Virus record (IMG/VR): IMGVR_UViG_3300025801_000024 | Span: 1 to 34,529 of that record | DNA length: 34,529 nt | Reading direction: 5' to 3' (one strand) | Source: a virus | Lineage: Duplodnaviria > Caudoviricetes | The notes under the pieces: generated by a model | The model's database searches: none | Told to the model about the DNA's origin: nothing | The model's input: only the letters and a program-made list of their open reading frames with translations | Position numbers and translations under genes: made by a program | Part shown: piece by piece, positions 58-30,943 of the stretch | Layout of the letters: each line of letters begins with the position of its first letter | Numbering within the stretch: the stretch's first letter is position 1

Positions 58-220
58 AAAATCTAGGAATCAGAAAAATCTTAAGAAAATCTAGGAATCA
101 GAAAAATCTTAAGAAAATCTAGGAATCAGAAAAATCTTAAGAAAATCTAGGAATCCGAAAAACCATACGAAACTTCATATCAAAAATCATAAATCTGGAA
201 TTCCATATCAAAAATCATAA
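58..220. repeat. AT-rich 28-bp tandem repeat (AAAATCTAGGAATCAGAAAAATCTTAAG x3 plus a partial 4th), then CATATCAAAAATCATAA x2, also 28 bp apart
   Basis: ATCTAGGAATC starts at 61, 89, 117 and 145; CATATCAAAAATCATAA starts at 176 and 204. Non-coding and far more AT-rich than the GC-rich genome. Confidence 0.95.
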
Positions 221-242
221 GAAGGGGGCGGCGACAAACTGG

Positions 243-271
243 TTGACGGCACCGAAGCAATCGGTTAGCTT
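243..271 (+). promoter_or_regulatory. putative sigma70-type promoter
   Basis: TTGACG (243-248), 17-nt spacer, TAGCTT (266-271), upstream of the first gene of the + strand arm. Confidence 0.55.
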
Positions 272-300
272 TGGTGCTACACACTGAAGAGGAAACAGAG

Positions 301-675
301 ATGGGTATTCCAGATTATGAAGAAGCGAAAAGGGCCGCTGAAAGGTTTGCAACGGGTATTGACCCGTACGACGCACCCCACAATGGTCAGAACGCCAACC
401 GAGCGCAACTCCCGCTGGTTCGCCTGCACGAGAGGCTGCTCCTGGCGATCAACCGGAACCGGGAGGTGGTCTATGCCCTCGACGACTTGCTGGGTAAGGT
501 GCACGACCCGGGATGGGCCCCGCCACCGCGGGCGACGGAGGCGATAGACCTCTCCTTGGTTGAAGTGTTGAACAAAGGTCCCGGTCTTATAAACGAAAAC
601 ACGGAGGCCGCTTTGTTTACGATCAACGCCATCGAGAAGGCGCTGTTCGAGCCGAGAGAGCCGAGCGAAAGCTAG
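301..675 (+). CDS. hypothetical protein
   Basis: ORF; ATG at 301 preceded by the RBS GAGGAAACAGAG. Confidence 0.7.
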   Translation: MGIPDYEEAKRAAERFATGIDPYDAPHNGQNANRAQLPLVRLHERLLLAINRNREVVYALDDLLGKVHDPGWAPPPRATEAIDLSLVEVLNKGPGLINENTEAALFTINAIEKALFEPREPSES

Positions 676-683
676 CTTCTTGC

Positions 684-953
684 TTGGGAATCCGGGATAC
701 TGACGTCGTGTTTTACGTGAGCCTGACGGAGCCGCACCAGGTCAAGACGAGGAAGCTTCACTGGTGCGCTTGGTGCAACGAGCTGATACCCGTTGGCACC
801 GCGGGGATCTGGGCCAGGTCTTATATCTTCGAGGATGGGCCACAGAGCGATTGGATGCACCCGGAATGCTACGAGGCGATGGTGGGGTTGGACCCGGGGG
901 AGCTTAGTGAGGGGTGGATGGCCGGGGATTTTCAAAGAGGTCGGACGGAGTAA
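684..953 (+). CDS. hypothetical Cys/His (Zn-binding-like) phage protein
   Basis: HWCAWC...WMHPEC motif pair; exact start uncertain. Confidence 0.65.
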   Translation: MGIRDTDVVFYVSLTEPHQVKTRKLHWCAWCNELIPVGTAGIWARSYIFEDGPQSDWMHPECYEAMVGLDPGELSEGWMAGDFQRGRTE

Positions 954-960
954 CTTGTAG

Positions 961-1173
961 ATGAGTCAGAACCCTCTGGTGTCGCTGTCCACGGCTGGTT
1001 TTGACGGGCTACAGGTAACCCTTGTTGAGCCGGGGGATGAGAACGCCCCAGAGCCAGGGCATGTGAGCGTAAAAAGGGGCCGGGCTTACGTGCTGAGCCA
1101 AGACTGGGATGCGATGAAGAAGTACTTCCGGAGGCAGGTCTGGGACCAGACATCTTGGGACAATTCAAAATGA
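961..1173 (+). CDS. hypothetical protein
   Basis: ORF with upstream GGAG; ATGA overlap with the next gene. Confidence 0.6.
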   Translation: MSQNPLVSLSTAGFDGLQVTLVEPGDENAPEPGHVSVKRGRAYVLSQDWDAMKKYFRRQVWDQTSWDNSK

Positions 1174-1649
1174 GTCAGAACGCCCTGAAGCGTAACGAGG
1201 TCGCGGGAAGGGAGATCATGCGCAACGTCGGCGATCTCCTGGAGCATCTGCGGATCAACGCATGCCCGGAGTACGCGCTTCCGATTGACGGAACCGAGGC
1301 GAGAATCCTTCCGGGAGACCGCAAGAAGATCACCCCTACGGTCTGGCGCCCGTTCGAGAAAGAGGACATCTCGCGATACGGGCTCCTGATCAACACCTAC
1401 ATGGGCCTGCTCAAGAAGGTGCTGCCCGATCTCAAGGCCGTGGACCACGCCATGGTCGAGGACGTGCGGGACCGGCTCTCGGACCAGGAGCTGGCGCAAA
1501 GGTTGACCTCCCTCGGGGCGAACGTGATCAAGCTCCCGGGGCTCACTGACCAAGGTCAGAGGAAGTTGGCATCGGTCACTCGGTTGCCGCAACGCGGGCA
1601 GCCCACCACTACCACGCTGATGGAATGGGAGAAAGAGAATGGCCAATAA
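1170..1649 (+). CDS. putative terminase small subunit
   Basis: GLLKKVLPDLKAVDH motif followed by a 'LSDQEL' tail, as in TerS-like proteins; upstream of terL; ATG overlaps the previous stop. Confidence 0.55.
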   Translation: MSQNALKRNEVAGREIMRNVGDLLEHLRINACPEYALPIDGTEARILPGDRKKITPTVWRPFEKEDISRYGLLINTYMGLLKKVLPDLKAVDHAMVEDVRDRLSDQELAQRLTSLGANVIKLPGLTDQGQRKLASVTRLPQRGQPTTTTLMEWEKENGQ

Positions 1650-1953
1650 CAGAATGTATCTGGTATACCGCCCGACTGGGGACGCTGTATTCCTCGGAAA
1701 GCGCATGGGTTGGGGGTGGTACGGAACGCCGGAGAATCTGGTGGAGCATATCGCGGCCCTGTTCGATAAAGCGGAAGAGGCTTGTATCCGAGGGAGGTCT
1801 CAGGATGACTTCGCGATCGCGATGGAGTCTGGAGAGGGTCAGCCCTACGTAATTGACGATTGGAAGAGCACCAAGCCGTCGGGCGATACTTGGCCATCTC
1901 TTGTTCTCGATATCGGGGAAGATGTTCCGCGAGGAACTATGCAGAGCATTTAG
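1639..1953 (+). CDS. hypothetical protein
   Basis: 104-aa ORF overlapping the previous gene, with a GGGAG RBS. Confidence 0.7.
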   Translation: MANNRMYLVYRPTGDAVFLGKRMGWGWYGTPENLVEHIAALFDKAEEACIRGRSQDDFAIAMESGEGQPYVIDDWKSTKPSGDTWPSLVLDIGEDVPRGTMQSI

Positions 1954-1982
1954 CTAGCACCGCTGACGGAAGCAACGATTCT

Positions 1983-2300
1983 GAGTGAGTAACCAGACAC
2001 CGCCGACAGAACCAACTCCTCGGAATGAGCCATCCAAAGAGACAGAACCACGAACTTGGAGAGAGCGCAATTCGACCGTCTGAAACAAGGTAATGAAGCG
2101 AGTTATCGGTTAAGACAGAATCACATGAGATGATCGAGGCATTATCCAGAAGAGAGTCGCACAAGGGGATCGAGACACTGAATCCGGACAGAATCAATTA
2201 ACACGAGCGAATTACCGACTCGGATAGAACCAAGAATAGTAAATGAGTCAGACGGACCGAAAGACCAGTAAGACTCGAACGAACCCACGATGTGAGAAAA
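1983..2300 (+). ncRNA. TIGR-like dual-repeat guide RNA array 1 (about 8-9 units of 36-37 nt)
   Basis: GACAGAACC-type repeats at 2005, 2041, 2078, 2114, 2150, 2187, 2223, 2259 alternate with GAATGAGCC/GAACGAACC-type repeats at 1983, 2023, 2059, 2096, 2132, 2168, 2205, 2241, 2277; spacers mostly 9-10 nt. Confidence 0.85.
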
Positions 2301-2301
2301 C

Positions 2302-2502
2302 ATGATTCTAAAGATTGCGAACAAACGTGAGTTGGACGCTTGGATTAACGAGCGAATCCAACTCGGGCATGACATGGTGTCGGTGAGGGGATGCCCTCCG
2401 GACGGTGCGGAGTATGAGGATGGGGGAATAATCACGAAACCGGTTAATGTTACGTGGAAGGATTGCGAAACCGGGGAAACGTTCGGGATAGTGTTCGAAT
2501 GA
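2302..2502 (+). CDS. small hypothetical protein between two TIGR-like arrays
   Basis: 66-aa ORF with GAGAAAAC before the ATG; its stop codon lies inside the first repeat (GAATGAGTA) of array 2. Confidence 0.65.
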   Translation: MILKIANKRELDAWINERIQLGHDMVSVRGCPPDGAEYEDGGIITKPVNVTWKDCETGETFGIVFE

Positions 2503-2686
2503 GTAAGAGTCATTGACAGACTCCCGTAGCGCGAACGAGACAACCGAGATTGTCAGAAACAAGCACGAGGATCGAGACAACCGGCATGAAAGAATAATTC
2601 AAGCGCGAGCGAGTGAAACTGTGCGAGAGAACCGAGAAAGCTAAACGAGTCATCTAAATCGAACACCCAGAGGCCGTGAACGAATT
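2497..2686 (+). ncRNA. TIGR-like dual-repeat guide RNA array 2 (about 5 units)
   Basis: RARYGAG-type repeats at 2497, 2533, 2570, 2607, 2643, 2678 alternate with GAnAGAAnn-type repeats at 2515, 2552, 2588, 2625, 2661; spacers 8-10 nt. Confidence 0.8.
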
Positions 2687-2941
2687 ATGAGTGTGGATAA
2701 AGAGATGCCGAGATACCAGTGCCATAAGCAAGTATGGGCGCTGAAGATACAGAGTATCGAGAGCAGGGGGAACGGCGCGACGATCACGCCGGAGGATCCT
2801 GGTTATGGTCCGTTCGAGGTTTCCGAGGAGTACGTGACCAAGCATGATCCGAAAGCAGGCGGCTACTTCGTTGTCTACGCCGATGGATACCAGTCGTTTT
2901 CGCCGGCTGAGGCGTTAGAGGGCGGCTACACCCGAGTATGA
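2687..2941 (+). CDS. conserved small phage protein with GYxVxYxDGYxSxSP motif (possible anti-defence/sponge-associated domain)
   Basis: GGYFVVYADGYQSFSPAEALEGGY motif, common in phage proteins. Confidence 0.75.
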   Translation: MSVDKEMPRYQCHKQVWALKIQSIESRGNGATITPEDPGYGPFEVSEEYVTKHDPKAGGYFVVYADGYQSFSPAEALEGGYTRV

Positions 2942-4662
2942 CTCAGCTCGCGGTACAGGAAATCAAGAATCTCTCGGACGAGGAGAGGGGCCAGCTTGAG
3001 GACCTGATCGCAAGCTCAGGGTACGCGCTATGGGCGCCGAACCCCGGGCCCCAGTCTCTGGCGTATTACTCGGAGGCTGACGAGCTGTTTTACGGTGGCG
3101 CGGCCGGGGGCGGGAAGTCCGGGCTTATCATTGGTTTGGCGCTCACGAGGCATCAGCGCACCCTGGTCATCCGTAAGGAGTCCACGCAGCTGCGTGGGTT
3201 CATCGACGACGTTGCGCGGGTCATCGGCTCCCGGGATGGGCTCAACAGACAAGACGGCCAGTGGCGGATACCTCCGAAGCTCACTGGAGTCGAGGACCAT
3301 CTGCTTGAATTCGGCGGGGTACCCAACCCTGGGGACGAGGAACGTCACCAGGGAATCCCGCACGATCTCCTGGCGTTCGACGAAGTCACCCAGATCGCCG
3401 AATACATACTCGACTATCTATCCACATGGAATCGTTCCATCAACCCCAAGCAGCGGTGTCGGATCATCCTTGCGGCTAACCCCCCAACACCCTCTACCAT
3501 GCGCGGTGGGGCGTCCAACGGGATTTGGATCATCCGCCGATACGCCCCTTGGCTGGACCCACTCTACCGGGATCCTCTTGGCAAAGGTCGGGCCGAGCCG
3601 GGGGAGCTTCGTTGGTTCGTGACCATCGACGGGAACGAGGAGGAATGGCCGAACGGAATCCCATTCGCTCATTACCCGAGAGGGCATCCGGACCCGGAGT
3701 ACTTCGAGATCATCAAGCCGCGCTCCAGGACCTTCGTGCCGGCTATGGTGACGGACAACCCGTACCTCGCTGGCACCGACTACGTGGCCACGCTACAGAA
3801 GCTTCCAGAGCCTCTCAGGTCGGCCCTGCTCTACGGCGATTTCTCCGTTTCCCTCTCCGATAAGCCGACGCAGCTCTTCCCGACCGAGTGGGTCCGGGAA
3901 GCGATGATCTACTGGGAGAGCTTGAACAAAACGTTTCCTCATCCGACTGCAGCCCCGAACGAGATGACGGCGATTGGGGTGGACGTGTCGCGAGGCGGTG
4001 GGGACGCCACGATCATGGCCCCCAGGCATCACTTCTTCTACGACACCTTGAAGGAGATACCGAGCGTACAGACGCTTAACGGGGCCTCTGTGGCGGCGCG
4101 GGTGATCGAGGCGCACCGGGGTCAGGCGGTCGCCGTTATCGACGCCAACGGCGTGGGGGCTTCCGCCTACGATCACCTCCGCAACACGACGGCCCTGCAT
4201 AGCCAGGGTCTCCTCAAGGGATATGTCGGCTCGGAGAAAGCCTGGCTTCGGGACAGGTCCGGCCGGTACGAGTTTCTCAACCTGCGTTCACAGAGCTATT
4301 GGAAGCTCCGTGAGCAGCTCGACCCGACATCTCCTGAACGGATAGCCCTTCCCCCGGATGACAAGCTCCTTGAGGAGCTGACGGTTCACACATGGGTTGA
4401 GCAGGGGGGTAAGATCCACGTCCTTCGGAAAGAAGACGTGACGAAGCTTCTGGGGCGAAGCCCCGACCGAGCGGACTCCGTGGTCATGGCCTCGACGGTG
4501 CGTGATGACAGAGCGCCAACGGTCAGAGACAACATCGCGGCGCGGGCGGCACGGGTGGCCGATGCCGATATCAACCAACAGGGAAGGCGGCGGGGGCCGT
4601 CTCGGGAGGCCATAGAGGCTTCCTGGTCTGACAATGTGTTACCTTACCCGAGACGACGGTAG
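2938..4662 (+). CDS. terL: terminase large subunit
   Basis: Walker A YGGAAGGGKS, Walker B LLAFDE, coupling motif AANP, nuclease motifs IGVDVSRGGGD and GRSPDRADS. Confidence 0.95.
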   Translation: MTQLAVQEIKNLSDEERGQLEDLIASSGYALWAPNPGPQSLAYYSEADELFYGGAAGGGKSGLIIGLALTRHQRTLVIRKESTQLRGFIDDVARVIGSRDGLNRQDGQWRIPPKLTGVEDHLLEFGGVPNPGDEERHQGIPHDLLAFDEVTQIAEYILDYLSTWNRSINPKQRCRIILAANPPTPSTMRGGASNGIWIIRRYAPWLDPLYRDPLGKGRAEPGELRWFVTIDGNEEEWPNGIPFAHYPRGHPDPEYFEIIKPRSRTFVPAMVTDNPYLAGTDYVATLQKLPEPLRSALLYGDFSVSLSDKPTQLFPTEWVREAMIYWESLNKTFPHPTAAPNEMTAIGVDVSRGGGDATIMAPRHHFFYDTLKEIPSVQTLNGASVAARVIEAHRGQAVAVIDANGVGASAYDHLRNTTALHSQGLLKGYVGSEKAWLRDRSGRYEFLNLRSQSYWKLREQLDPTSPERIALPPDDKLLEELTVHTWVEQGGKIHVLRKEDVTKLLGRSPDRADSVVMASTVRDDRAPTVRDNIAARAARVADADINQQGRRRGPSREAIEASWSDNVLPYPRRR

Positions 4663-4673
4663 CTGGAAATAAG

Positions 4674-6995
4674 ATGAGCAAAATCGAGTTTGCGGATAAG
4701 AAGCCTTTGACTCGGGATGAGGTCCACCAGGCGGCGGTGGCCGAGCTGCGTACCAACCTCTTCATGCAGGAGGATGATCTGCAGGAGAATTGGGAAGGCG
4801 CTTACGCCTATTACAAGGTGGAAGCCCCCGGGCCGGATGGGGTGAATACCTCGGACGCAAAGTCTTCTGACGTATCCGATACCATCGAATGGATTCTTCC
4901 TGCCGTTCTCAAGCCGCTGGTCGAGTCTCCCGATGTCGTGCGATTCGATCCGGTGCATCCGGAAGACGAGGACCAGGCCGCACTCGAATCGGATTACGTG
5001 CATCATACGTTCATGAAGAAGTGCAAGGGTTTCTTGAAGCTCTACGTCCACATCAAGGACGCGCTGCTTCTGAAGAACTCGATTTTTTGCACCTACTGGG
5101 ACGAAGGGATAACGAATCAGCTTGAGGAATATGAGAACGTCACGGAGGTCGGACTCGCGAACCTGATGGTCCCGGATGACGGGTCTGAAGTCCGGCTTAT
5201 CTCATCCGAGGAACGCACTGAGCCGGTATCCGATCCGATCACCGGGTCCATTCTGATGCAACCGGACCCCGTAAATCCCGAGACCCTTGTCCCGGTTACC
5301 CAGACGCTTTACGACGTGAAGATACGCCGGTTCACCCCCAACGGGGCGCCGGTTGTCGAGAACTGCGTTCCGGAGATGTTCAAGGTTCGGTTCAACCACG
5401 ACAGCCTGGACCTCGACGACTGCCGCTGGTGCTGTTACACCATGAACAAGACCAGGTCTGAGCTGTACGCCTACGGTTACGACGAGGACTTGATTGACGA
5501 GATTCCAGTTTCCGAGTCGAGTTATTCACAGATCAATAATTCAGTCCGATACGCCAGGGAGGACATAGAACGTACAGCGAACTCCCTCGGGGGAGAGCGT
5601 AACGAGACGGGGGACCCGTCGCAGGACATGCTGGAGGTCAGCCGGGTTTACATGACCTTGGACACGGACGGCGACGGCTACGAGGAGAAGCTTCTGGTTA
5701 TCCTCGGGGGCGAGGAAGGCGACGTTCTTCTCGACTATTACGAGGTCCCAGAGAACCCGTTCAGCGCAAGCTCCCCATTCATAGCCGGTCACAAGTTCTA
5801 CGGCTACTCCTTGTACGACAAGCTCAAGGAGTTGACCGATCAGAAGACTGATGTCCTCCGCAAGCTTACGGACAACCTCGACCTCCAGAACAACCCCCGC
5901 AAGAAGGTCTTGATTGGGCAAGCCAATCTGACCGATCTACTGACGATACAGCCGGGGGGACTTTACCGGATGGAGCAGATCGGCGCGGTGGAGGAGATGC
6001 CGTCCCCCGACATCTCCAGGACTTCCGACATGCTTCTTCGGTACTACGATAAGGTCCGAGCGGAAAGGACTGGGGCCGATCCGAACGCCCAAAGTATTGT
6101 GGACCTGATGCCAGAGGAGTCAATGAACTCCGCGGTGGAGCGGGTGATCTCGATGAAGGAGGAGCTGGTTGGGCTCATCATCAGGGTCTTCGCCGAGACT
6201 GGTGTCCGGAGCATGTTCCTGAAGCTTCGGAACCTGATGCTCAGGCACATGCCGCGAACGGAGCTGGTTCAGCTTAGGAACAAGTGGGCCCAGGTAAATC
6301 CGGGGAACTGGATTGAGCGCACCAACACGACGATCGTAGTCGGGCTTGGCACCGGGGACCGGATCAAGAAAACCCAAGGTCTGGGGATGATTCTCGGGAT
6401 CCAGAAGGAGCTTGCGCAAGGTGGGTTCCTGGGGCCGCTGGTGAGCGCCGAGAGGATCAACCACACGCTCTCTGAGCTGATCCGGGTGCAGGGGCTCGGG
6501 GATCCGGACGACTTTATTCTGAGCCCGGCGCTCTTGGATCCGGAGAATGTCGCCAAGAACCCGAAGCGGGCGGAAGAAGCCATGCGGGCGCATCAGATGC
6601 GCCAGCATCAAGAGCAACAGCAGGCCCAGCAGGCCCAGGCGCAACAGCAGGCCCAGCAGGCCCAGCAGCAAGCCTTACTCCAGGCCCAACAGCAGATCGA
6701 ACAGACACGAGCTGAGACGAAGCGTTACGAGACCGACAGCAAAGCCAAATCCCAGGTTCAGCAGGCGATACTCAAGCAGCAGGAGGCTTCGCAGAAGGCT
6801 CGGCAGGAAATGCAGAAGCTTCATCAGGATATGGCCAAGTTCATGGAGGAGATGCGGTTGAAGTGGGCCGAGCTGGCGTCGAAGGAGGGGATCGAGGACG
6901 CCAAGATGGCAGCCGGGATAAGCGGGACTCTGATCTCTGAAGGAATCAAGGCGAAAGCGGCCCAGCAGAAACAAGAAACTGGAGACGATGACTGA
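4674..6995 (+). CDS. portal protein (podovirus type) with Gln-rich C-terminal coiled coil
   Basis: 773 aa directly after terL; SSDVSDTIEWILP...DEDQAALESDYV portal-like motifs; long Q/A helical tail. Confidence 0.9.
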   Translation: MSKIEFADKKPLTRDEVHQAAVAELRTNLFMQEDDLQENWEGAYAYYKVEAPGPDGVNTSDAKSSDVSDTIEWILPAVLKPLVESPDVVRFDPVHPEDEDQAALESDYVHHTFMKKCKGFLKLYVHIKDALLLKNSIFCTYWDEGITNQLEEYENVTEVGLANLMVPDDGSEVRLISSEERTEPVSDPITGSILMQPDPVNPETLVPVTQTLYDVKIRRFTPNGAPVVENCVPEMFKVRFNHDSLDLDDCRWCCYTMNKTRSELYAYGYDEDLIDEIPVSESSYSQINNSVRYAREDIERTANSLGGERNETGDPSQDMLEVSRVYMTLDTDGDGYEEKLLVILGGEEGDVLLDYYEVPENPFSASSPFIAGHKFYGYSLYDKLKELTDQKTDVLRKLTDNLDLQNNPRKKVLIGQANLTDLLTIQPGGLYRMEQIGAVEEMPSPDISRTSDMLLRYYDKVRAERTGADPNAQSIVDLMPEESMNSAVERVISMKEELVGLIIRVFAETGVRSMFLKLRNLMLRHMPRTELVQLRNKWAQVNPGNWIERTNTTIVVGLGTGDRIKKTQGLGMILGIQKELAQGGFLGPLVSAERINHTLSELIRVQGLGDPDDFILSPALLDPENVAKNPKRAEEAMRAHQMRQHQEQQQAQQAQAQQQAQQAQQQALLQAQQQIEQTRAETKRYETDSKAKSQVQQAILKQQEASQKARQEMQKLHQDMAKFMEEMRLKWAELASKEGIEDAKMAAGISGTLISEGIKAKAAQQKQETGDDD

Positions 6996-7339
6996 TGGAC
7001 ATCAAAGACCCCTTGCGCCGGGCGCCGGCTTCGTTCTCCGAGTGGCTCGATACCTTCACGGTAGAGGACGAGGACGAACGGCTTCGGCTCGCGGTGGCGG
7101 CGGATGCACTCCGATCGAACCCCGTGTTCGTGCGGGTGGTGAATCATCTTGAGGCAATTTCGCTCAAGGCTATTCACGATTGCCCAGTAGGAAACCGGGA
7201 TCTTTTGTTCGACGCGAAGGTTTTGCTTGACGCAGTACGGAACATCCGGGGCCGGATAGATGCGCTCGCCGAGGAAAAGAAGCTTGCGGAATTGCGAAGC
7301 AAGAAGGCGGATGGATTCGCAAGAATTCCAGACAAATAG
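6995..7339 (+). CDS. hypothetical head-module protein
   Basis: translationally coupled to portal (TGATG); lies between portal and scaffold. Confidence 0.75.
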   Translation: MDIKDPLRRAPASFSEWLDTFTVEDEDERLRLAVAADALRSNPVFVRVVNHLEAISLKAIHDCPVGNRDLLFDAKVLLDAVRNIRGRIDALAEEKKLAELRSKKADGFARIPDK

Positions 7340-7367
7340 TTGACGTTTTCATAACTTTATGTAAGGT
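7340..7367 (+). promoter_or_regulatory. possible promoter for the scaffold-capsid genes
   Basis: TTGACG (7340-7345), 16 nt, TAAGGT (7362-7367) in an AT-rich gap; AAGGTG could instead be just the RBS. Confidence 0.35.
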
Positions 7368-7373
7368 GATGGT

Positions 7374-8540
7374 ATGGCCGGGGAATCAGCACAAAAGACA
7401 GATAACGTGACCACAATGGAGGGCTTCATTGAGAAGCATGGAGTCGATGGCGCGTTAAACGACCTGAACTCTTCGGGTGTTCGCCAGGAGGATTCTTCTG
7501 GGCGGGCTCCGGATACTCGCCCCCGGGAAACTTCGGGGTCTCCTGGCAAGCTTTCCTCAGACGACCCCGGGGACGAGTATCCAGAGCTTGACGTGGCCAC
7601 GCTCAGAGAGCTTGGTCTCGCGAGCGAAGAGGAGGGGGAGCCTGCCGATGCCCCTTCTTCAGACGACGTAGACGACACCGCGCAAGACGACCTGGACTTA
7701 GGCGCCTTTGCCAAGCATCTTGGTGTGGATCCCAAGGACCTTGTAAACGATCAAGGGACCTTGAAGGTTCGAACCAAGGTGGACGGGGAGGAGGGTCTGA
7801 CACCCTTGGTAGACTTGCGGACGGGTTACCAACTGCGGCAGCACTTTACTCGGCAAAACGAAGCGTTTCTCCAACAGCGTCAAGCCTGGGAAGAGGCCCA
7901 GAAGCAACAGATCCAGGAACACCAGCAACACGTTGCCGTTGCAAACCAGATTCTGCTCTCCGATGAGCAGGCCATTGTCCAGAAGTATCAGGCGATGGAC
8001 TGGAACGGGCTACGTGAAACGGACCCAGCGGAATTCGCTGCGAGACAACAGGACTTCCAGCGGGAGGTCCAGCAGGTCCGCGGTCGCCGGGCGCAGATCC
8101 TTCAAGGATTCTCGAATCGGGTGAATGAGTTCACCCGTGCCCAGGGGGAGCAACTTCGCCAACTGAGCGAGGTTGGTGCGAAAGAGCTGGCCCAGTTAGA
8201 AGGATGGAAGGACGAGGAATCCTTTTCGAAGGGGTCCGCGGAACTCCGTGATTACCTGGTGAACAAGGTCCGGATGCCTCCGCAAGTGGTGGGCAATCTG
8301 GTAGACCCGTATCTGTTGCATACGCTGAACAAGGCGGCGAAGTTCGACAAGCTGATGGCTCGTGTTTCGCAAGCGAAACGAGTGCAGCCTGTCGGGAAGA
8401 TGCCCGCCGGAGGAACGCCGAAAACAAGCGGTGGTGGCCGGAAGCAGAAGATCCAGAAAAGCCTTGACCAAGTACGGGCAGACGGATCGGTGGAATCTGC
8501 GGCTATCGCCTTTCAGCAGTTGGGCGTTCTACGAGAGTAA
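7374..8540 (+). CDS. capsid scaffolding protein
   Basis: acidic disordered N-terminus, KVDGEEGLTPLVDLRTGYQLRQHFTRQ motif, coiled coil, DWNGLRETDPAEF; directly before the capsid gene. Confidence 0.85.
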   Translation: MAGESAQKTDNVTTMEGFIEKHGVDGALNDLNSSGVRQEDSSGRAPDTRPRETSGSPGKLSSDDPGDEYPELDVATLRELGLASEEEGEPADAPSSDDVDDTAQDDLDLGAFAKHLGVDPKDLVNDQGTLKVRTKVDGEEGLTPLVDLRTGYQLRQHFTRQNEAFLQQRQAWEEAQKQQIQEHQQHVAVANQILLSDEQAIVQKYQAMDWNGLRETDPAEFAARQQDFQREVQQVRGRRAQILQGFSNRVNEFTRAQGEQLRQLSEVGAKELAQLEGWKDEESFSKGSAELRDYLVNKVRMPPQVVGNLVDPYLLHTLNKAAKFDKLMARVSQAKRVQPVGKMPAGGTPKTSGGGRKQKIQKSLDQVRADGSVESAAIAFQQLGVLRE

Positions 8541-8546
8541 AAGACA

Positions 8547-9677
8547 ATGGCAGCTCCACAAGACTATTTCCAGAGAATCGATCTGGCCGGTGCCGGTGAC
8601 ACGATGCTTGATCGATCCGGTGACAATGTCCGTGAAGACTTCATGGATGTTATCTATAACATCGCCCCGACCCAGACGCCGTTTATGTCCGGTATCGGTA
8701 AGGGCAAAAGCAAGGACGTGTACACTTCCTGGCAACAGGATGCCCTGGCCGCGCCGAATCCCAGTAACGCGGCAAAGGACGGGGCCGACATCGGTGCCGA
8801 CGAATCCGCGGCCGCCCGCCGGGTTGGAAACATCAACCAGATCTCCCGCAAGCAGATCATCAGCACCGGGCGCAACGAGGCCGTAACCAAGGCCGGGCGC
8901 TCTTCCGAGTTGGCCTACCAGCTCGCAAAAGTCTCCAAGGCGCTGAAGCGCGACATGGAGGCCATTCTCACCGGTAACCAGGGGGCCTTGGCCGACTCAG
9001 ATGGCGATACCGCCTCGTTGCTCGGTGGCCTGCGTGCCTGTTTCCGTGGGGACAACACCCAGCTCGCGGCAGCGGATAACCTGCTCGGGGCCGAGGTCCA
9101 GACGGCCCTGGTGGCGGCTGACGGGACCAATGGTGGCGTTTTGCACGAGCCCTCGGGCTCCGAGACCTACATCCCGACTGTGGCTACTGACGGCACCGTG
9201 CGGGCGCTCACGGAGACGCTTCTGCGTTCCTGCATCGAGAACTGCTACACCAACGGCGGCGAGCCGAGCATGATCATGGTCTCGCCGGCTATGAAGACCG
9301 TGATCTCGACCTACCTCTACACGTCGAGTGCGCGGGTTGCCGCTCTGTTCGCCGATGTCGGCCAGAAGAAGGGCGACGGCGGTGCCGTGGCCCAGGGCTC
9401 CATCGATGTCTACATCAGTGACTTCGGCGCCCTGAAGATCGTCCCCAACCGGTTCCAGGGGCACACGGGATCGGCTCCGCGTCATCGCGACGTGTTTGTG
9501 CTCGACATGAGCCTGTGGTCTGTCCTCTACCTGCGGTCTTTCCGTACGATCGACGTAGCGAAGACTGGCGATGCCAGCAAGAAGCTGCTTCTGGTTGACT
9601 ACAGCCTGTGCTTCAAGGAGGAGATGGGGTCGGGCGGTATCTTCGATATCGATCACACGGCCGCGATGACGGCGTAA
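8547..9677 (+). CDS. major capsid protein (DUF5309/SU10-like)
   Basis: REDFMDVIYNIAPTQTPFMS, WQQDAL, NINQISRK, ELAYQLAKVSKALKRDME, SDFGALKIVPNRF and AKTGDA motifs. Confidence 0.93.
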   Translation: MAAPQDYFQRIDLAGAGDTMLDRSGDNVREDFMDVIYNIAPTQTPFMSGIGKGKSKDVYTSWQQDALAAPNPSNAAKDGADIGADESAAARRVGNINQISRKQIISTGRNEAVTKAGRSSELAYQLAKVSKALKRDMEAILTGNQGALADSDGDTASLLGGLRACFRGDNTQLAAADNLLGAEVQTALVAADGTNGGVLHEPSGSETYIPTVATDGTVRALTETLLRSCIENCYTNGGEPSMIMVSPAMKTVISTYLYTSSARVAALFADVGQKKGDGGAVAQGSIDVYISDFGALKIVPNRFQGHTGSAPRHRDVFVLDMSLWSVLYLRSFRTIDVAKTGDASKKLLLVDYSLCFKEEMGSGGIFDIDHTAAMTA

Positions 9678-9681
9678 GGCC

Positions 9682-9993
9682 GTGTCTGAGCGCCTCTTTG
9701 ATGAGGACGACGTGATGACCCAGTGGATCCGCCCGGATCCACAGGGCTTCACGTTGCGTACCCGGTACAAGGGTACGCAGGAGATCCTGGCTCGCAACCA
9801 TCTCGCCCGATCAGAAGCCCCAAGACGGTTTTCCCAAGATGGCGTAGAGTTCCACCATGTCTGCTCGGTTCCGATCGAGGTGTACGACATGCTGCATCGG
9901 AAGCTCGGACGGCCGCCGGAAGCGAGCGAGCTTGTCAAGCTTTCCCAGGATCGTGATTTTTGCAAGCTTAAGACCCGCGAGGTGAAGCTGTGA
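9682..9993 (+). CDS. hypothetical protein following the capsid gene
   Basis: HHVCSVPIEVY...DRDFCKLKT motif resembles post-capsid genes of related podoviruses. Confidence 0.75.
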   Translation: MSERLFDEDDVMTQWIRPDPQGFTLRTRYKGTQEILARNHLARSEAPRRFSQDGVEFHHVCSVPIEVYDMLHRKLGRPPEASELVKLSQDRDFCKLKTREVKL

Positions 9994-11189
9994 GTGGAAA
10001 AATCTGCAACGGGGCTCCGACGACTTCTCAGTCCTTGGTCAATGAGACCAGAGCTTACTGCGAGGGTCGGAAGTGGGCGGCGGACGGCGGGTTGAGTACC
10101 GGCAATCCACACGAGTCTGGAAATGAGGATGCCCTGGCTTGGGCGCGAGGGTATGCTTCGTGGAAGGCCAGCCCGGTAGGGGCGGGGCAGGACTGTTGCG
10201 CGGACGCCTATGGTGGGGCAGGGATGCAACTCCAAATCGAGACCACCGGGGAAGACGAGGATTTCACTATTCTCGCCGCCGATGTGGGGACCTATAACGC
10301 GACGATAGACTGGGGGGACGGAAGTGCTCTTTCGGTGATATCCGCGTACAACGACGCGGATCTCGCACACACCTACGCCGCGGCCGGTGTCTATGAAATA
10401 GTTATCAACGGATCGTTCCCCAGAATCAATTTCAATAACGGGGGAGACGTAGCCAAGATACAAGGGATTGTGCTGAGAGATATAGGGACTCTCAGTTTCC
10501 AGAATTCGTTTTATGGGGCGGCCAACAATGTATCGGTATCCGGCGGACCGATAACCTCTGGTGTAGAGAATTTCACCAGTGCGTGGCGGGATAATGGTCT
10601 AACCTCTTTCCCCGGTACCATAGATATCAGCTCAGGAACAAATTTCACCCAAACGTGGCGGGGGAATGGTCTAACCTCTTTCCCCAGCACTTTGGATTTC
10701 AGTTCCGCTGTTATCGTGTACGCCGCGTGGTACGACAACGCTTTGACCAGTTTCCCGGCCATAGATTTCCCGTTAGCTACGGATTTCGGTTTCGCGTGGC
10801 GGGCAAACGCTTTGACCAGTTTCCCGGACATAGATCTTAGCTCAGGGGAGAGTTTCACCTATGCGTGGTATGGGAATCAGTTAACCGCTTTCCCGGCGAT
10901 AGATCTAAGCTCAGGTACTGACTTTTCCTACGCATGGTATGGGAACCCCTTGACGACGTTTCCCGCCGGGATGTTCGACTCCTGTGTTGCTACCGATTAC
11001 ACGAATGCGTTTTTCGGGTGTGCATTGGACGAAACTGGGGTTGACAACATCCTGGTGTCGGTTGACACGTCGGGGGCGGAGAACGGCACCCTGGACTTGG
11101 ACGGGGGGACGAACGCGGCGCCGGGAGTCGCGGGAGCCGCGGCTAAACTCAGCTTGGAAGGCAAGGGCTGGACGGTCACAACGAACTAA
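9990..11189 (+). CDS. modular protein: Rmf/CrpP-like N-terminus, PKD-like domain, LRR/BspA-like repeats (possible virion decoration or adhesin)
   Basis: TIDWGDG...HTYAAAGVYEI PKD motif; about 6 repeats of 22-23 aa (NxLTSFPxIDxSSGTxFxxAW). Confidence 0.75.
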   Translation: MSGKICNGAPTTSQSLVNETRAYCEGRKWAADGGLSTGNPHESGNEDALAWARGYASWKASPVGAGQDCCADAYGGAGMQLQIETTGEDEDFTILAADVGTYNATIDWGDGSALSVISAYNDADLAHTYAAAGVYEIVINGSFPRINFNNGGDVAKIQGIVLRDIGTLSFQNSFYGAANNVSVSGGPITSGVENFTSAWRDNGLTSFPGTIDISSGTNFTQTWRGNGLTSFPSTLDFSSAVIVYAAWYDNALTSFPAIDFPLATDFGFAWRANALTSFPDIDLSSGESFTYAWYGNQLTAFPAIDLSSGTDFSYAWYGNPLTTFPAGMFDSCVATDYTNAFFGCALDETGVDNILVSVDTSGAENGTLDLDGGTNAAPGVAGAAAKLSLEGKGWTVTTN

Positions 11190-11195
11190 GGTCGC

Positions 11196-11666
11196 TTGAT
11201 CATGAAGCGTTGTAAGCGGTTCTTCTCCCCGCTGGTTCACTTACGGACAAGGGCCTTTTCAGGCCCTTTTTTCCAGCGTTCAGGATCCTTTTGCGTCAAG
11301 GGTCCGGGCAATGCCTATGCCTTTGGCGGGCAGTTGGCCCCGGCTATGGCAGCGTTCGGTCAGGCTACCGCCGTAGACGCAGTTCAGATCACGTTCACCA
11401 AGTGCGTTGATATCCCTGGCCCGGGTCTGACCGGGATCGAGATCCAAGTGAACGGAGGGGCCTGGACTGAGGTAACCGCGGCTGCTGAGGACGATCCCCC
11501 AGGCGACGGCACCGTGTGGACAGTAACTCCTGACCAGACGCTTCAAGCAGGAGACGAGGTTCGTTGGCGCTACGACAGCGATGGCGGCGCCAATGGGTCG
11601 ATTCTCGATTGCTCGGAGTCTGCAGACATCGGGGACCAGGACATCCCGGTAACAAATGCTCTGTAG
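11196..11666 (+). CDS. hypothetical beta-rich (Ig-like) virion protein
   Basis: ORF in the structural block, rich in Gly/Asp/Thr; ATG at 11202 is the likely start. Confidence 0.65.
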   Translation: MIMKRCKRFFSPLVHLRTRAFSGPFFQRSGSFCVKGPGNAYAFGGQLAPAMAAFGQATAVDAVQITFTKCVDIPGPGLTGIEIQVNGGAWTEVTAAAEDDPPGDGTVWTVTPDQTLQAGDEVRWRYDSDGGANGSILDCSESADIGDQDIPVTNAL

Positions 11667-11723
11667 ATTACAACTAATGGAATCCACCAGTCGAATAACT
11701 AAAACGAGAATTCAAACAATGGC

Positions 11724-12044
11724 ATGCCTGAGAAATCAAATCACGGTTGGATACTGAATGCGCTGGTTATCCTTTTTACCGCTGCGGGTGTTGTCATTGC
11801 AGTTATCAACGCTGTTTCTGCTAGTGAGCGCAGGATTGAGCGGGTATACGCTATGGCAGAGGACAACATGGATCGATTGGCCAGACTCAGGGACCTCGTT
11901 GACAGTCTCTCAGCGAAAGTTGACGAAGGATGCCGGAACCTGTCCGCGCTTTCAGTGGAATTGCACGAAAAGAGCCGGCGATGCGATATCCTTGAGCGAA
12001 AGGTGGAGCGGATCGAAGACCGAATTTTCGGAGAACAGAAATGA
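11724..12044 (+). CDS. membrane-anchored coiled-coil protein (possibly lysis-associated)
   Basis: N-terminal TM helix WILNALVILFTAAGVVIAVI followed by a coiled coil; coupled to the next gene. Confidence 0.65.
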   Translation: MPEKSNHGWILNALVILFTAAGVVIAVINAVSASERRIERVYAMAEDNMDRLARLRDLVDSLSAKVDEGCRNLSALSVELHEKSRRCDILERKVERIEDRIFGEQK

Positions 12045-12241
12045 GCTACCTGGTATCTCAGCCTACGCAGGCTCCTTCCCGAAAGATGGCTGGAGCGGGC
12101 CTCGGTGGCGTGTTGACTACGTTGATTATCGCGGTTCTCTCCCAGATTGGGGTAGACATTAGCCCGGACGTGGCGGCGGCGATCGCCACTCTGCTCTCGT
12201 TCCTGGTCGGGTACTTCGTCAAGGAGAAGGCGATTTCTTGA
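12041..12241 (+). CDS. putative holin (2 TM helices)
   Basis: 66 aa; PSRKMAGAGLGGVLTTLIIAVL and VAAAIATLLSFLVGYFVKEK; charged C-terminus. Confidence 0.6.
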   Translation: MSYLVSQPTQAPSRKMAGAGLGGVLTTLIIAVLSQIGVDISPDVAAAIATLLSFLVGYFVKEKAIS

Positions 12242-12261
12242 AACAACATGAGGCAAATACG

Positions 12262-12471
12262 ATGAAAGACCGTATCGAGTGGGACTTTGGGTATCATGCC
12301 CCGACAGCTCCTGGTAGGAAAGAAGAGCACGAACAGATGAGAGCCGCTTGCAAGGCTCTGGCTCTTTACATCGCCGAGGCCCTTCCGCCAGGAAGAGAAC
12401 AGAGCACCGCGATAACGAAGGTAGAGGAAGCGATGTTCTGGGCAAACGCCGGGTTGGCCAGGAAGAAGTGA
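12262..12471 (+). CDS. Acb2/Tad1-like helical hairpin protein (candidate anti-defence nucleotide sponge)
   Basis: FGYHAP...REQSTAITKVEEAMFWANAGLAR resembles the Tad1 C-terminal helix motif RE...A.T..EEA..W.N; GAGG RBS before ATG 12262. Confidence 0.7.
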   Translation: MKDRIEWDFGYHAPTAPGRKEEHEQMRAACKALALYIAEALPPGREQSTAITKVEEAMFWANAGLARKK

Positions 12472-12478
12472 TCACGCA

Positions 12479-12538
12479 GAGGCAGCTCGACTCTACGCCC
12501 CGCCTAGAGTTGCCTCATCTCGAACCGCCCGAAAGGGC
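12479..12538 (+). other. two intergenic stem-loops
   Basis: GAGGCAGCTC (12479-12488) pairs with GAGTTGCCTC (12507-12516); GCCC-GAAA-GGGC (12527-12538) has a GNRA tetraloop; no U-tract. Confidence 0.5.
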
Positions 12539-12573
12539 TGGTGGGGCTCCAACGCAATGAGGCTGTGAAGCTG

Positions 12574-12981
12574 ATGAAGAAACTGATGTTGTCGCTAGTT
12601 CTGGTGCTGTGTGCGCCGGTTGTGCTCGCCCAGGTCATCGGTCTGGATGGTGACGTGGACTCGAACTTTCCTGGTAGGATCCGCGTTCCGTACGCCGTGG
12701 GCCAGGACTTCGGCACCTACGATGCCGCGGTGAACCTTTCCGTGACGCCAACCGGGGTCACCGCTCGCGCCAAGAAGCGTTTCTGGGGGACCGAGGAGCT
12801 GGACTTCTCGATGACTCCTGGTCAGGTGACCACGATCACCGACGCCGATCTCGCCGTGGACTGCACGGTCCTTGATGGCGGGGTTGTCTATACCGGGCAA
12901 ACCTGGTCCGTAGAGTACAAGGGCCTGAGTGACGGCGGGATCGCCGTCAAGTTCCTGTGCGAGGACGCCGTAGCGCCGTAA
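12574..12981 (+). CDS. secreted hypothetical protein
   Basis: signal peptide [19 protein letters not shown]. Confidence 0.7.
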
Positions 12982-13031
12982 GGCAACAGGCCGGTGCCCT
13001 GGAACCCTGGGGCGCCGGCACGGAGAAGCTG

Positions 13032-13169
13032 ATGCCGCTCAAGAAAGGGTCTAGCAAGAAGGTGATCTCGGAGAACATCCGCCAGGAGATGCACGCCGGG
13101 AAACCGCAGAAGCAGGCAATCGCGATCGCTATGCGGAAGGCCGGGAAGGCTCGGAAGAGGAAGAAATGA
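13032..13169 (+). CDS. small basic phage protein
   Basis: [38 protein letters not shown], a common phage motif; GGAG RBS. Confidence 0.75.
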
Positions 13170-13792
13170 TCACCGACTACGCCTCCCTGAAACAGGCGAT
13201 TCTGGACTGGCCGGATCTCTCGACGGAGACCAATCTCGTCGGGGTTATTGACACGATAGTCGGGCTCGCCGAAGCCAGGATCAACGGGGAGGTCCGGCTG
13301 CGGGAAGGGATAACCACCCGAGTGGAACCGGACACGGGAACGCCGTTCTCCGACTACACGCTCCCGGATGACTATCTGGAGATGGATCGGCTGATGGGGC
13401 CAAGCGGGGAAACCCTCTTCATGCGGCCTGCGGAAGAGCTGCTGATGTGGGGAAGCGAGCCGGACGACCCGGTCTTTTACGCGATAGACGGGCGGCAGCT
13501 CCTCTTCGCCCCCTCGGTGACGAACTTCTCGTATCGGTACTATCAGCGCATCCCGTCCTTGTCCGATACGTCAAGCAACTGGCTTTTGACCAGGGCGCCG
13601 GACCTCTACCTTTATGCCTCGCTGATTCACGTATCGATCTTCTCGAAGGAAGATGACCGTGAACAACAGCGGTACGAGAAAATGTATGGTTTGACGTTCT
13701 CCCGCCTGGTCCGGGAGGACGCGATGTCGATTCAACCGCGGTCACAGTCGCTCTATGCCTCTGTGCCACAGGGCAAGAAGCGGAGAACATAA
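13166..13792 (+). CDS. head-tail adaptor protein
   Basis: [12 protein letters not shown]...LAEARIN...LPDDYLEM...[29 protein letters not shown] adaptor motifs. Confidence 0.85.
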
Positions 13793-13794
13793 CG

Positions 13795-14424: not shown

Positions 14425-14430
14425 TAATCG

Positions 14431-25104: not shown

Positions 25105-25107
25105 GGC

Positions 25108-25416: not shown

Positions 25417-25447
25417 CGTTGTTTCCTCTATGGTTAGAGAGCATGTC

Positions 25448-25756: not shown

Positions 25757-25767
25757 CGTTGTTTCCT

Positions 25768-29060: not shown

Positions 29061-29093
29061 AAAGGCTTTCCTCGGTAACGGGACGATGGTTGG

Positions 29094-29462
29094 GAAACGT
29101 TTGATGGTCATGGTTCTATCTCATCTGGCGGCTCGCTTTCCAACTAGGGGTCTGTCTTGTGTTGTGACTCACTCATTTCTAATGGATATATCGGAGTACA
29201 TGGTTCGCTAAGCTGTCGTCGTTCTATCGGCCGTCAATCGCTCGTTTGCGAGTCAGGGTTCTCTCGTATACGGTTGCTCATTCATGAATGATGGAGTATC
29301 CGACAGCTAGGTTCGCTTTACCTCGATAGGTCTTTCAAGTGTCGTGACTCGTTCATTTGCCATGGTTCTGTCAGTCGAGAGGGCTCGTTCATCGGCCATG
29401 GTTCTTTCAAAGCGGGTAACTCGTTCGCCGATATTAGTTCTGTCAATCATCGAGGCTAGACG
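29094..29462 (-). ncRNA. TIGR-like dual-repeat guide RNA array 3 (10 units of about 36 nt) downstream of the tas-like gene
   Basis: + strand GGTTCTRTC-type repeats at 29112, 29148, 29184, 29220, 29257, 29292, 29328, 29364, 29400, 29436 alternate with GRCTCGYTY-type repeats at 29130, 29166, 29202, 29239, 29275, 29310, 29346, 29382, 29418; spacers mostly 9 nt (8-10). Confidence 0.92.
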
Positions 29463-29480: not shown

Positions 29481-30623
29481 TTACTCAGGCTTCTGGGGAG
29501 GCGGGATGTAATGCGCGTGGGCCTCACCCGCATGCGCAAAGACATACGGAGCCGGGGGCTCTGATTTCATCTCCTGGCGCCACCAGCATTCCTGAAGGTG
29601 GGAGATGAACATCTTCACCGCGTACCGCTTCGCCCGTGAGTGGATGTGCGCCGGCGGAAGCATGGGAACCCCGAAGGCGCTGACGATATCGCTCAAGACC
29701 ATCGGCTCCCCGAGCTTATACTTAGCCCTAGCGGCAGCCGGGTCAACCTGTCCCGAATACCAAGCGTAGGCGTCGGTATCCTTCCCGATCTTCACGGTCG
29801 CCAGCTTCTCCTTGGCGATCTCCGCATACGCCCCGGAGAAATTCCGATTCCACTCTTCGACCTTACGCTTCGCATACAGGTGGCCGTAGAATCCATTCTC
29901 CTTGTTGGCCACCTTGACGAAGCTTTCCCCGATCTTCCAGAACAGGGTTTTCAACGCCCCATTGAAGGGCTTCTTCGCAAGGGCGGCGATGCAACCGGTG
30001 TCGGTGAAGTCCTTTTCTTCCCCGTCCTTGCCGGTAGAAGCCGATCGGATGAGGTTCGTAGGGTTTACGCCGATCTCTTGCGCGGCAAGCGAGAGGGCCT
30101 CCACGTACCCACGGCTTGGAGTCTTGACCTCAGCCCACAGCTTCTTTGCACCTTCCTTCCCGACCCATCGCTGCTTTGGGTTCAGACCAGCGAAATTTAT
30201 GATATGGCCTGCGGTCGGGGCCTTGCGAATATCGATGTGTGCCAGCAGCCCGGCTGCGAGGATCGGGCCAATCCCCATGGTCTGGTCGAAGAACCATGCC
30301 ATGGGATGAACCATGGTGTATGCCGCGAGGGTCTTCGCTACCTCGCTTTCAAGGGCCTTGGCCTGCTCCAGGATCCACTTGATCGCCTCGTGAGGCTCTG
30401 CGTCGACCCCGGTCTTCTTCTCGTCTCGCTGCAAGGCCGAGACCTGGTTGCTGACGTGGATCCGCTGCTTCTGCATGCTGTAGTACAGATCCACGAGGAA
30501 CCTCGCTTCGTTGTCGGTTACCCCGCCACCCTTCTGCCTGAGACCTTTTAGAAGATCTTTCGACAGTTTCTTGACGGGGATGTCGAGGGCTTCGAAGCCG
30601 TCGAGTTCGGTGTTTTCGTTCAT
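29481..30623 (-). CDS. tasA: Nop-domain/IS110 C-terminal-like RNA-binding protein, TasA-like (no nuclease domain seen)
   Basis: coiled coil LVDLYYSMQKQRIHVSNQ; MGIGPILAAGLLAHIDIRKAPTAGHIINFAGL (Transposase_20/Nop-like); PFNGALKTLFWKIGESFVK; HIHSRAKRYAVKMFISHL; no RuvC DEDD or HNH motif; flanked by 36-nt arrays. Confidence 0.82.
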   Translation of the reverse strand: MNENTELDGFEALDIPVKKLSKDLLKGLRQKGGGVTDNEARFLVDLYYSMQKQRIHVSNQVSALQRDEKKTGVDAEPHEAIKWILEQAKALESEVAKTLAAYTMVHPMAWFFDQTMGIGPILAAGLLAHIDIRKAPTAGHIINFAGLNPKQRWVGKEGAKKLWAEVKTPSRGYVEALSLAAQEIGVNPTNLIRSASTGKDGEEKDFTDTGCIAALAKKPFNGALKTLFWKIGESFVKVANKENGFYGHLYAKRKVEEWNRNFSGAYAEIAKEKLATVKIGKDTDAYAWYSGQVDPAAARAKYKLGEPMVLSDIVSAFGVPMLPPAHIHSRAKRYAVKMFISHLQECWWRQEMKSEPPAPYVFAHAGEAHAHYIPPPQKPE

Positions 30624-30641
30624 CGCTGTTTCCTCAGTTAT

Positions 30642-30751
30642 CGCTCGGTCTATGTTGTTGGCTCTGTCTTCATCTGCTTACTCGGTTCTTCGGAGTAGTT
30701 CGATCGGGGGATGTGAACTCATTCTCTTTAGGTGGCTCTTTCCGGTCTGTT
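30642..30751 (-). ncRNA. TIGR-like array 4 (about 3 units) upstream of the tas-like gene
   Basis: + strand CGCTCGGTC 30642, GGCTCTGTC 30660, TACTCGGTT 30679, AGTTCGATC 30697, AACTCATTC 30716, GGCTCTTTC 30734; 18-19 nt half-period. Confidence 0.72.
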
Positions 30752-30754
30752 GGT

Positions 30755-30943
30755 TTATGGGGCACACGTCTTGATCAATTCTCGCATTTCACGTATGTGT
30801 TTTGTGTCTTTACTCCCTCGTTCTATTGCGCCTTCTAATCCGCCCTCTGTAACCCCCGTGTGACTGTCTGCTATCCGCCAATCTCTCTCCGCGAGTTGCA
30901 GCCATTGCTTCAGCGTCTCTTCAGATACGTGGATGACTTTCAT
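30755..30943 (-). CDS. hypothetical protein
   Basis: GAGAGAAACC before ATG 30943; lower GC. Confidence 0.6.
   Translation of the reverse strand: MKVIHVSEETLKQWLQLAERDWRIADSHTGVTEGGLEGAIERGSKDTKHIREMRELIKTCAP

Follow-up and report, generated by a model that had tools for sequence, protein, structure and literature searches.

The SpTIGR-TasH system of Salicola phage CGphi29 (Faure et al. 2025, PMC12045711; NC_020844.1) is built, like the arrays reported here, from alternating 10-nt repeats and 8-nt spacers that recur in units of 36 nt. Its effector, SpTasH, resembles the Tas protein of our phage, P0001, in its Nop fold and its C-terminal Y/H dyad, but SpTasH carries an HNH nuclease whereas P0001 has no nuclease. 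A solo Nop-domain effector with arrays both up- and downstream of tas, as found here, is described for the dual-repeat TasA systems (FpTIGR type), MbTasA and PlTasA in the available parts of two further sources (10.64898/2026.09.09.750476, 10.64898/2026.08.11.744272); the stem-loop array of PlTasA is divided into three subarrays about 450 nt apart, according to the accessible text of PMC12045711. Repression by TasA and processing by the Y/H dyad have been reported for other orthologs, in the portions available of 10.64898/2026.09.09.750476 and PMC13421893, and the repression described in that portion of the former source concerns stem-loop TasA, not the dual-repeat clade of P0001. TIGR arrays typically end in a truncated edge repeat and a rho-independent terminator, as the available text of Faure et al. 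(PMC12045711) has it, and in the texts at hand the published arrays lie adjacent to, flanking or within tas, with context windows that span 5 kb or as much as 10 kb (PMC12045711; 10.64898/2026.09.09.750476).

The phage DNA analysed here, which we call the window, is a stretch of 34,529 nucleotides with four arrays, two of which, R1 and R2, stand among the packaging genes. We read R1 and R2 as two dual-repeat TIGR arrays, 13 units in all, that lie far from the only tas gene of the phage and likely provide extra guide cassettes for its nuclease-free TasA; the probability we attach to this reading is about 0.65. Adjacency to tas is the usual mark of a TIGR array, and it is seen in the other two arrays and not in R1 or R2. 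The features on which the argument turns are collected in Table 1.

Table 1. Features of the window that bear on the remote and tas-adjacent arrays.
Feature	Position	Strand	Remarks
Double-depth stretch, run X1	126..293		Located between the divergent gene arms; may be a direct terminal repeat
Sigma70-like promoter candidate	243..271	+	TTGACG-17-TAGCTT, 8/12; overlapped by an inverted repeat; predicted
Likely terminase small subunit	1170..1649	+	Homologs 32-357 nt before terL in 6 relatives; without family hit
104-aa ORF of unknown function	1639..1953	+	Directly before R1; no trace of tas sequence
Remote TIGR array R1	1987..2303	+	8 units (edge, spacer A, loop, spacer B) of 36-37 nt, then a trailing spacer and loop
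66-aa ORF	2302..2502	+	Between R1 and R2; no homolog found
Remote TIGR array R2	2497..2705	+	5 units of 35-37 nt, then a trailing spacer and weak loop
Small conserved phage gene	2687..2941	+	phrog_11049 (E 7e-29); begins at 2687 or, more probably, at 2705
Terminase large subunit	2938..4662	+	phrog_979, phrog_2
Tas-adjacent downstream TIGR array	29093..29462	-	10 units; first edge repeat degenerate
TasA (P0001)	29481..30623	-	380 aa; coiled coil and Nop domain; no HNH/RuvC; ~60-aa insertion; C-terminal Y360/H369
Tas-adjacent upstream array	30623..30760	-	~3 units; most degenerate of the four; phase less sure

The arrays were detected with a two-matrix chain model whose training set consisted of only the 20 repeats of the tas-adjacent array at 29093-29445 on the minus strand. 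Under this model R1 scores 129.6 (at 1960-2300) and R2 scores 89.5 (at 2480-2690); none of 1000 local dinucleotide shuffles equals either score, the shuffle maxima being 30.5 and 28.1, respectively, and the best chain across 30 genome-wide shuffles scores 21.2. Thus, when a profile from the tas-adjacent array is scanned genome-wide, both remote arrays stand far above shuffled background, as an earlier note on this DNA had expected. The upstream tas-adjacent array scores 46.7, again unequalled in 1000 local shuffles. A family model drawn from the arrays of relatives, whose seeds had themselves first been located with a matrix trained on the window, gives 107.3 for R1 and 54.8 for R2, and at most 15.5 in 18 stretches at the corresponding terL position of relatives.

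A dual-repeat TIGR array alternates two repeats of 8-12 nt with variable spacers of 8-12 nt, in units of about 36 nt, and the remote arrays have this build. Eight of the 13 remote units are exactly 36 nt long, with a half period of 18 nt, and weak half-units precede R1 back to about 1951. With 10 units downstream of tas and 3 upstream, the genome holds 26 units, and each of the four arrays runs in the coding direction of its neighbouring genes. The earlier note had thus placed the alternating repeats of the remote arrays correctly in position, strand and motif, and its estimates of 13-14 remote units and about 26 in total agree with our parse, as does its statement that every array follows the local direction of transcription. 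Its spacer length of 9-10 nt needs correction: the remote spacers are mostly 8 nt (7-9), because the repeats are 10 nt long and end in a partly conserved A. The remote consensus repeats are GACAGAACCA and GAACGAGTCA. We take the A-rich repeat to be the loop and the other the edge, a probable assignment given the A-rich loop in the available text of PMC12045711, the ends of the SpTIGR array and the phase of the self matches described below. Edge and loop repeats of TIGR arrays share box C / box D motifs in which the first base pairs with the eighth. In this phage, repeat positions 0 and 7 could pair in 45 of 56 repeats (G-C, G-T or A-T), and the consensus sequences end in YCA/CCA; the terminal CA is intact in 15/30 remote and 7/20 adjacent repeats. 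The UG box D of the TasR type is not conserved in the repeats of this phage and is absent from SpTIGR too. No spacer pair is common to remote and adjacent arrays.

Judged by their sequence, R1 and R2 belong to the same repeat family as the experimentally characterised SpTIGR array. The SpTIGR repeats are AAGACAACCA / AAGCGAGYCA, as against GACAGAACCA / GAACGAGTCA in this phage, and the family profile recovers the SpTIGR array unaided (W02, 15364-15753, score 268). Within the genome, the model of the adjacent array ranks first of 48 genome models for the remote repeats, by a small margin (15.2 versus 14.6); this rank partly reflects a tolerant model, and by consensus distance alone the adjacent array falls outside the top 8.

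The remote repeats are as well preserved as those beside tas. The two sets score alike under the family model (Mann-Whitney p 0.84), and core bases are kept at 92/116 positions in the remote arrays versus 85/108 in the adjacent ones. The decay of the remote repeats is uneven: positions 1, 4 and 5 are kept in 26-29 of 29 repeats, positions 8 and 9 in 19-21 of 29. Box C is looser than in SpTIGR, and the C at position 8 is present in 19/29 remote and 15/27 adjacent repeats versus fractions of 0.79-1.0 in the arrays of seven relatives, from which low-scoring repeats had been filtered. The closest relatives have clean CCA repeat ends. Among the remote units, those at 2023 and 2643 retain intact boxes. 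Since box C is looser than in relatives in all arrays of this phage, the system as a whole may be drifting.

The protein encoded between the two adjacent arrays passes the NCBIfam model TIGR_Tas_endo (NF052498) with 162.8 bits, the cut-off being 100. Its structural model (pLDDT 90.9) finds only TasH and TasR proteins among its best ten Foldseek matches, and its only sequence matches in the PDB are TaTasR and TasH; a single-sequence locus search with P0001 and a tblastn search of cultured phages gave no match. The model is helical, with no strand of three or more residues; the N-terminus is one helix, and the match to the Tas profile begins at residue 40. As the model contains no nuclease domain, we assign P0001 to TasA. 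Y360 and H369 line up by eye with Y289 and H296 of SpTasH, at a spacing two residues wider, and H369 is invariant in 53 sequences while the Y varies among relatives; P0001 thus likely keeps the Y/H processing dyad. The insertion of about 60 residues is common to its closest relatives. Weak matches to Pfam Transposase_20 and NCBIfam IS110 recall the IS110 transposases with their bridge RNA, with which P0001 shares its fold; we reject the identification of P0001 as such a transposase on its score of 25.6 bits against a cut-off of 140, on the lack of a DEDD/RuvC domain, and on the presence of arrays instead of a single bridge RNA.

The tas locus and three small ORFs separate two parts of a split DNA polymerase A (ORFs 27789-28895 and 31262-32062, minus strand). 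The complete relative G041, which has no tas, shows the same split, its gap being occupied by different small genes, so the region looks like an insertion hot spot. An intron around tas was considered and rejected, on the absence of an Rfam match and on this same split in a phage without tas. At the far end of the downstream array, a contig of run X2 (depth 4) covering 28951-29134 has about 20 substitutions in a 70-aa ORF and diverges from the window; on inspection by eye, its loose end holds another loop repeat and another spacer, a possible case of guide turnover between strains.

CheckV rates the source record, a linear virus contig, as 45% complete, so a second tas gene was possible. A pattern scan showed that a contig of 9,301 nt, L213, overlaps both ends of the window by 127 identical bases, which yields a closed map of about 43.6 kb; both overlaps contain repeats, which leaves the number of copies at these ends uncertain. 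The genes of L213 include one for an ArdC-like protein, one for a primase and several small ones, and it contains no tas-like segment and no array, its best chain (20.1) lying within the null. Neither a second tas nor a tas remnant is found in the window and L213. The earlier note was therefore right that no Tas-like gene lies near R1 and R2, and the closed map of 43.6 kb has a single tas. Its distance of 27 kb holds for the linear sequence (26.8 kb); across the junction of the closed map, the other way round, the arrays are 14.9 kb from tas.

The map has two divergent arms, with packaging and structural genes on the plus strand and replication genes on the minus strand. A chimeric contig was considered and rejected, on a depth of 18-21 on both arms in run X1, which may derive from the source sample, and on an X1 contig that spans the point where the arms converge. 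The window is identical to a second assembly, L001, over 284-14659, and the remote arrays are identical wherever contigs of runs X2-X4 cover them. Several other features of the map deserve mention. Four tandem copies of a 28-nt sequence (58-162) run into the double-depth stretch, likely marking the genome end or an origin region; a 340-nt module is present in two diverged copies, each with a 102-aa ORF (25097-25779); repeats of 69-72 nt (10547-10973) within a 399-aa ORF (9990-11189) are probably protein repeats; and the replication arm opens with an ArdC-like anti-restriction gene (L213:635-1618).

The arrays fill gaps between a stop codon and the next start codon. We found no terminator-like site after R1 or R2, nor between the arrays and their neighbours, and the arrays run on into the next start codon; in this respect R1 and R2 differ from the typical TIGR array with its truncated edge repeat and terminator. 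In all four arrays the last loop-like repeat ends on, or at most 1 nt from, the A of the next ATG; for example, the final A of the weak trailing loop of R2 is the A of the ATG at 2705. A family rule to this effect was rejected, since the offsets in relatives spread across the whole 36-nt phase. The 66-aa ORF starts in the last loop repeat of R1 and reaches its TGA stop inside the first edge repeat of R2, and so occupies a spacer-B slot; having no homolog in our search, it is perhaps no gene at all. Upstream of the remote arrays, the one promoter-like site is the candidate at 243-271, which falls below the threshold of the promoter scan. The earlier note's terS-like gene beside the arrays is supported by synteny but has no family match. 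Since its homologs in relatives lie close to terL (Table 1), and since none of 16 corresponding terL loci in relatives contains arrays, the 1.3 kb of arrays and small ORFs are an insertion in this lineage, and the site before terL is likely an incidental insertion site and no conserved timing device.

Arrays remote from tas recur in other phages. From 358 tas-like stretches 80 were kept, and we scanned 39 long records, each with its own profile (32 of them from those 80, five of the 39 being near-duplicates, and G026 being scanned minus its last 314 nt), for dual-repeat arrays. In 3/39 records arrays lie more than 5 kb from the only tas. G012 (64% complete) has remote arrays only, 8.5-12.7 kb from tas; G026 (complete, 194 kb, one tas) also has remote arrays only, at 21.7-23.6 kb; and G034 (complete) has adjacent arrays together with a large array of 63 half-units 6.7 kb off, on the opposite strand from tas. 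None of the ORFs listed beside these remote arrays was recognised as a packaging gene. A second set of records gave 0/9, so that at least 3/48 tas-carrying phage records have remote arrays, and at least 2/15 of those that are at least 90% complete; these counts are lower bounds, because two sets of adjacent arrays, in G002 and W01, escaped the profile. A de novo periodicity scan was noisy and was used for G002, G008 and G012 only, among the matches listed. In contigs from GTDB, an array lies 8.5-9.9 kb from tas within the examined flanks at 2/33 loci, one of them borderline.

An array-first scan found 6/38 stretches without tas, five of which abut contig ends. The orphan 7-unit array at G043:70651-70896 (L234) owes its position to a deletion of 1.34 kb relative to G050 (L219), which took most of tas together with the beginning of the array. 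Remote arrays are thus a recurring minority, and their stranding by deletion is real. We also observed that a gene for a Ro60/TROVE-like RNA-binding protein immediately precedes the remote arrays of G026 (79901-81945, L193), in which the repeats have a terminal G in place of A. Among the matches listed, G002 (L004) has two tas genes about 2 kb apart, each with a flanking array of different repeats, and in G007 (L017) and G008 (L018) the TIGR arrays have a period of 34 nt, the second repeat being the shorter one.

What the guides are directed against can be approached through their matches. In 5.3 Mb of loci (both strands counted), 607 guides gave 2 exact and 35 one-mismatch matches, versus 0.6 and 27.4 in controls; that is, there is no clear excess over controls in those 5.3 Mb, and there is no match for the guides of this phage. 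For matches to the phages' own DNA we used 31 genomes with enough 8+8 guides, after five near-duplicates had been dropped; three genomes with other spacing gave none. Sites with at most two mismatches were found for 7/607 loop-centred pairs, compared with 19.1 expected from re-paired spacers (permutation p 0.001), and for 14/588 edge-centred control pairs, compared with 17.9 expected (p 0.23). A second set of 161 guides gave 5 versus 8.1 expected, and 5 versus 7.7 in the control, so the phases are not separated in that set; in the pooled data there are 12 self matches versus 27.2 (Poisson p 0.0009) and 19 versus 25.6 in the control (p 0.11). The remote guides alone gave 1 versus 2.6 among 75, too few for power. 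In the tandem geometry, with spacer A placed ahead of the reverse complement of spacer B, self matches number 11, versus 27-30 in four other geometries, an indirect hint of tandem targeting. The shortage across the family suggests that guides binding the phage's own DNA are selected against, a conclusion that needs a larger test.

In the adjacent array, units 29318 and 29247 (minus strand) are related in that spacer A of one, reverse-complemented, exactly equals spacer B of the other, so their predicted targets overlap. We rejected a general idea of overlapping targets: the longer site it implies was not found in GTDB genomes or IMG/VR, and there is no exact case among the 8+8 guides of the family.

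Given a single tas, remote repeats as well kept as the adjacent ones and the recurrence of remote arrays in 3/48 records, use of R1 and R2 in trans is the natural and, as far as sequence can indicate, the likely reading. The arrays would be transcribed within the left-arm mRNA, no terminator-like site separating them from their neighbours. By analogy with published orthologs, TasA, supplied from the other arm, would cut this precursor in the edge repeats by means of its Y/H dyad, releasing tigRNAs of about 36 nt; a TasA dimer would then bind 16-bp sites in double-stranded DNA in which the reverse complement of spacer B comes directly after spacer A, and the bound protein would be expected to block transcription without cutting. 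As a side effect, such processing would also sever the packaging transcript. The targets are likely non-self, whether competing phages or elements, or the host.

Other accounts of R1 and R2 must be weighed against this one. The arrays might be a relic, stranded by the deletion or relocation of tas and now unused or decaying. The loose box C of this phage and the precedent of G043, which retains its 7-unit array after losing most of tas, speak for a relic, but no tas remnant is found near R1, the remote repeats are no less intact than those beside tas, with a decay that is uneven across positions, and an intact cognate TasA is present in the same genome, so that even stranded units could still be used; we consider a relic unlikely. 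The earlier note had proposed instead that one effector is loaded with different guide sets at different stages of infection, the packaging-arm arrays being made late and giving TasA a purposeful second set. Such an arrangement would suit the position of the arrays in the arm opposite to tas, co-oriented with the terL, portal and capsid genes, the lack of shared spacer pairs between remote and adjacent arrays, and the remote array of 63 half-units in G034, which lies on the strand opposite to tas and hence in another transcription unit. The proposal does not hold up well, since the location is not conserved (0/16) and the sole promoter candidate is sigma70-like and sits at the start of the arm. 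Nor is any sigma factor or RNA polymerase family found among the ORFs scanned; and in SU10, whose portal and capsid families match those of this phage, the left-end CDS 1-10 are predicted to be expressed early, from sigma70 promoters, as well as late (PMC4281155, in the part of the text available). Purposeful loading by stage is therefore quite improbable.

The arrays could also matter as RNA rather than as guides, if TasA cut them within the terS-terL transcript and so altered the stability or translation of the packaging genes, the guides being secondary. RNase III sites in T7 offer an analogy, and the apparent Y/H dyad of TasA, the placement of each array in a stop-to-start gap without a terminator-like site, and the coincidence of the last loop-like repeat with the next ATG in 4/4 arrays would all fit. 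That coincidence was noticed after the fact, however, and is not general in relatives, and the spacers are all different, as guides would be, so we hold this switch to be highly unlikely. Repression of the phage's own genes by its guides is a reading with scarcely any probability. TasA represses transcription and a control of the viral life cycle has been suggested (10.64898/2026.09.09.750476, in the portion available), and one spacer A, though not its partner spacer, agrees by eye with the promoter candidate at 243 over 8 nt. Against this, none of the 26 units has a site with at most two mismatches (gaps 0-2) in the window or L213, and the guides of the family match their own genomes less than chance, which argues against self-regulation. 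A broader conjecture would have one TasA run a distributed guide network, in which cassettes in separate transcription units give differing guide sets over the infection, processing by TasA trims the terS-terL mRNA and ties an early-arm protein to the expression of packaging genes, and dispersal also explains tas genes reported as arrayless; we regard it as doubtful.

The reading of R1 and R2 as extra guide cassettes used in trans bears on how TIGR systems are surveyed. We found no paper on remote or orphan TIGR arrays in the literature searched, within the parts of the sources available; figures S4/S5 and table S1 of Faure et al. may show dispersed loci. In the available text of that paper (PMC12045711) the term 'orphan' occurs 0 times and 'in trans' only within a reference title. 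In the published TIGR texts examined, to the extent of the parts available, SpTIGR-type arrays are not described in the position they hold here. Surveys confined to the surroundings of tas would miss such arrays. Since half of the guides of this phage lie beyond the published windows and G026 has remote arrays only, guide repertoires are undercounted, and some tas genes called arrayless may have distant arrays. As to how TIGR arrays arise, the dispersed cassettes show that an array can be seeded, or moved, at a distance from tas. Should larger sets uphold the shortage of self matches, it would indicate that the guides work in nature and are directed at non-self DNA, and the R1/R2 locus offers a simple system in which in-trans loading can be tested.

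Set beside SpTIGR, which has one adjacent array with a terminator and no remote array genome-wide, this phage has four arrays, two of them remote, with no terminator found. Isolated CRISPR arrays are served in trans by a distant cas locus, a guide store that is kept apart from its effector and recognised by its repeat; the repeats, the protein and the targeting geometry of R1 and R2 are unrelated to theirs. Compared with the published TasA systems, half of the guides of this phage lie 15-27 kb from tas, in the other gene arm.
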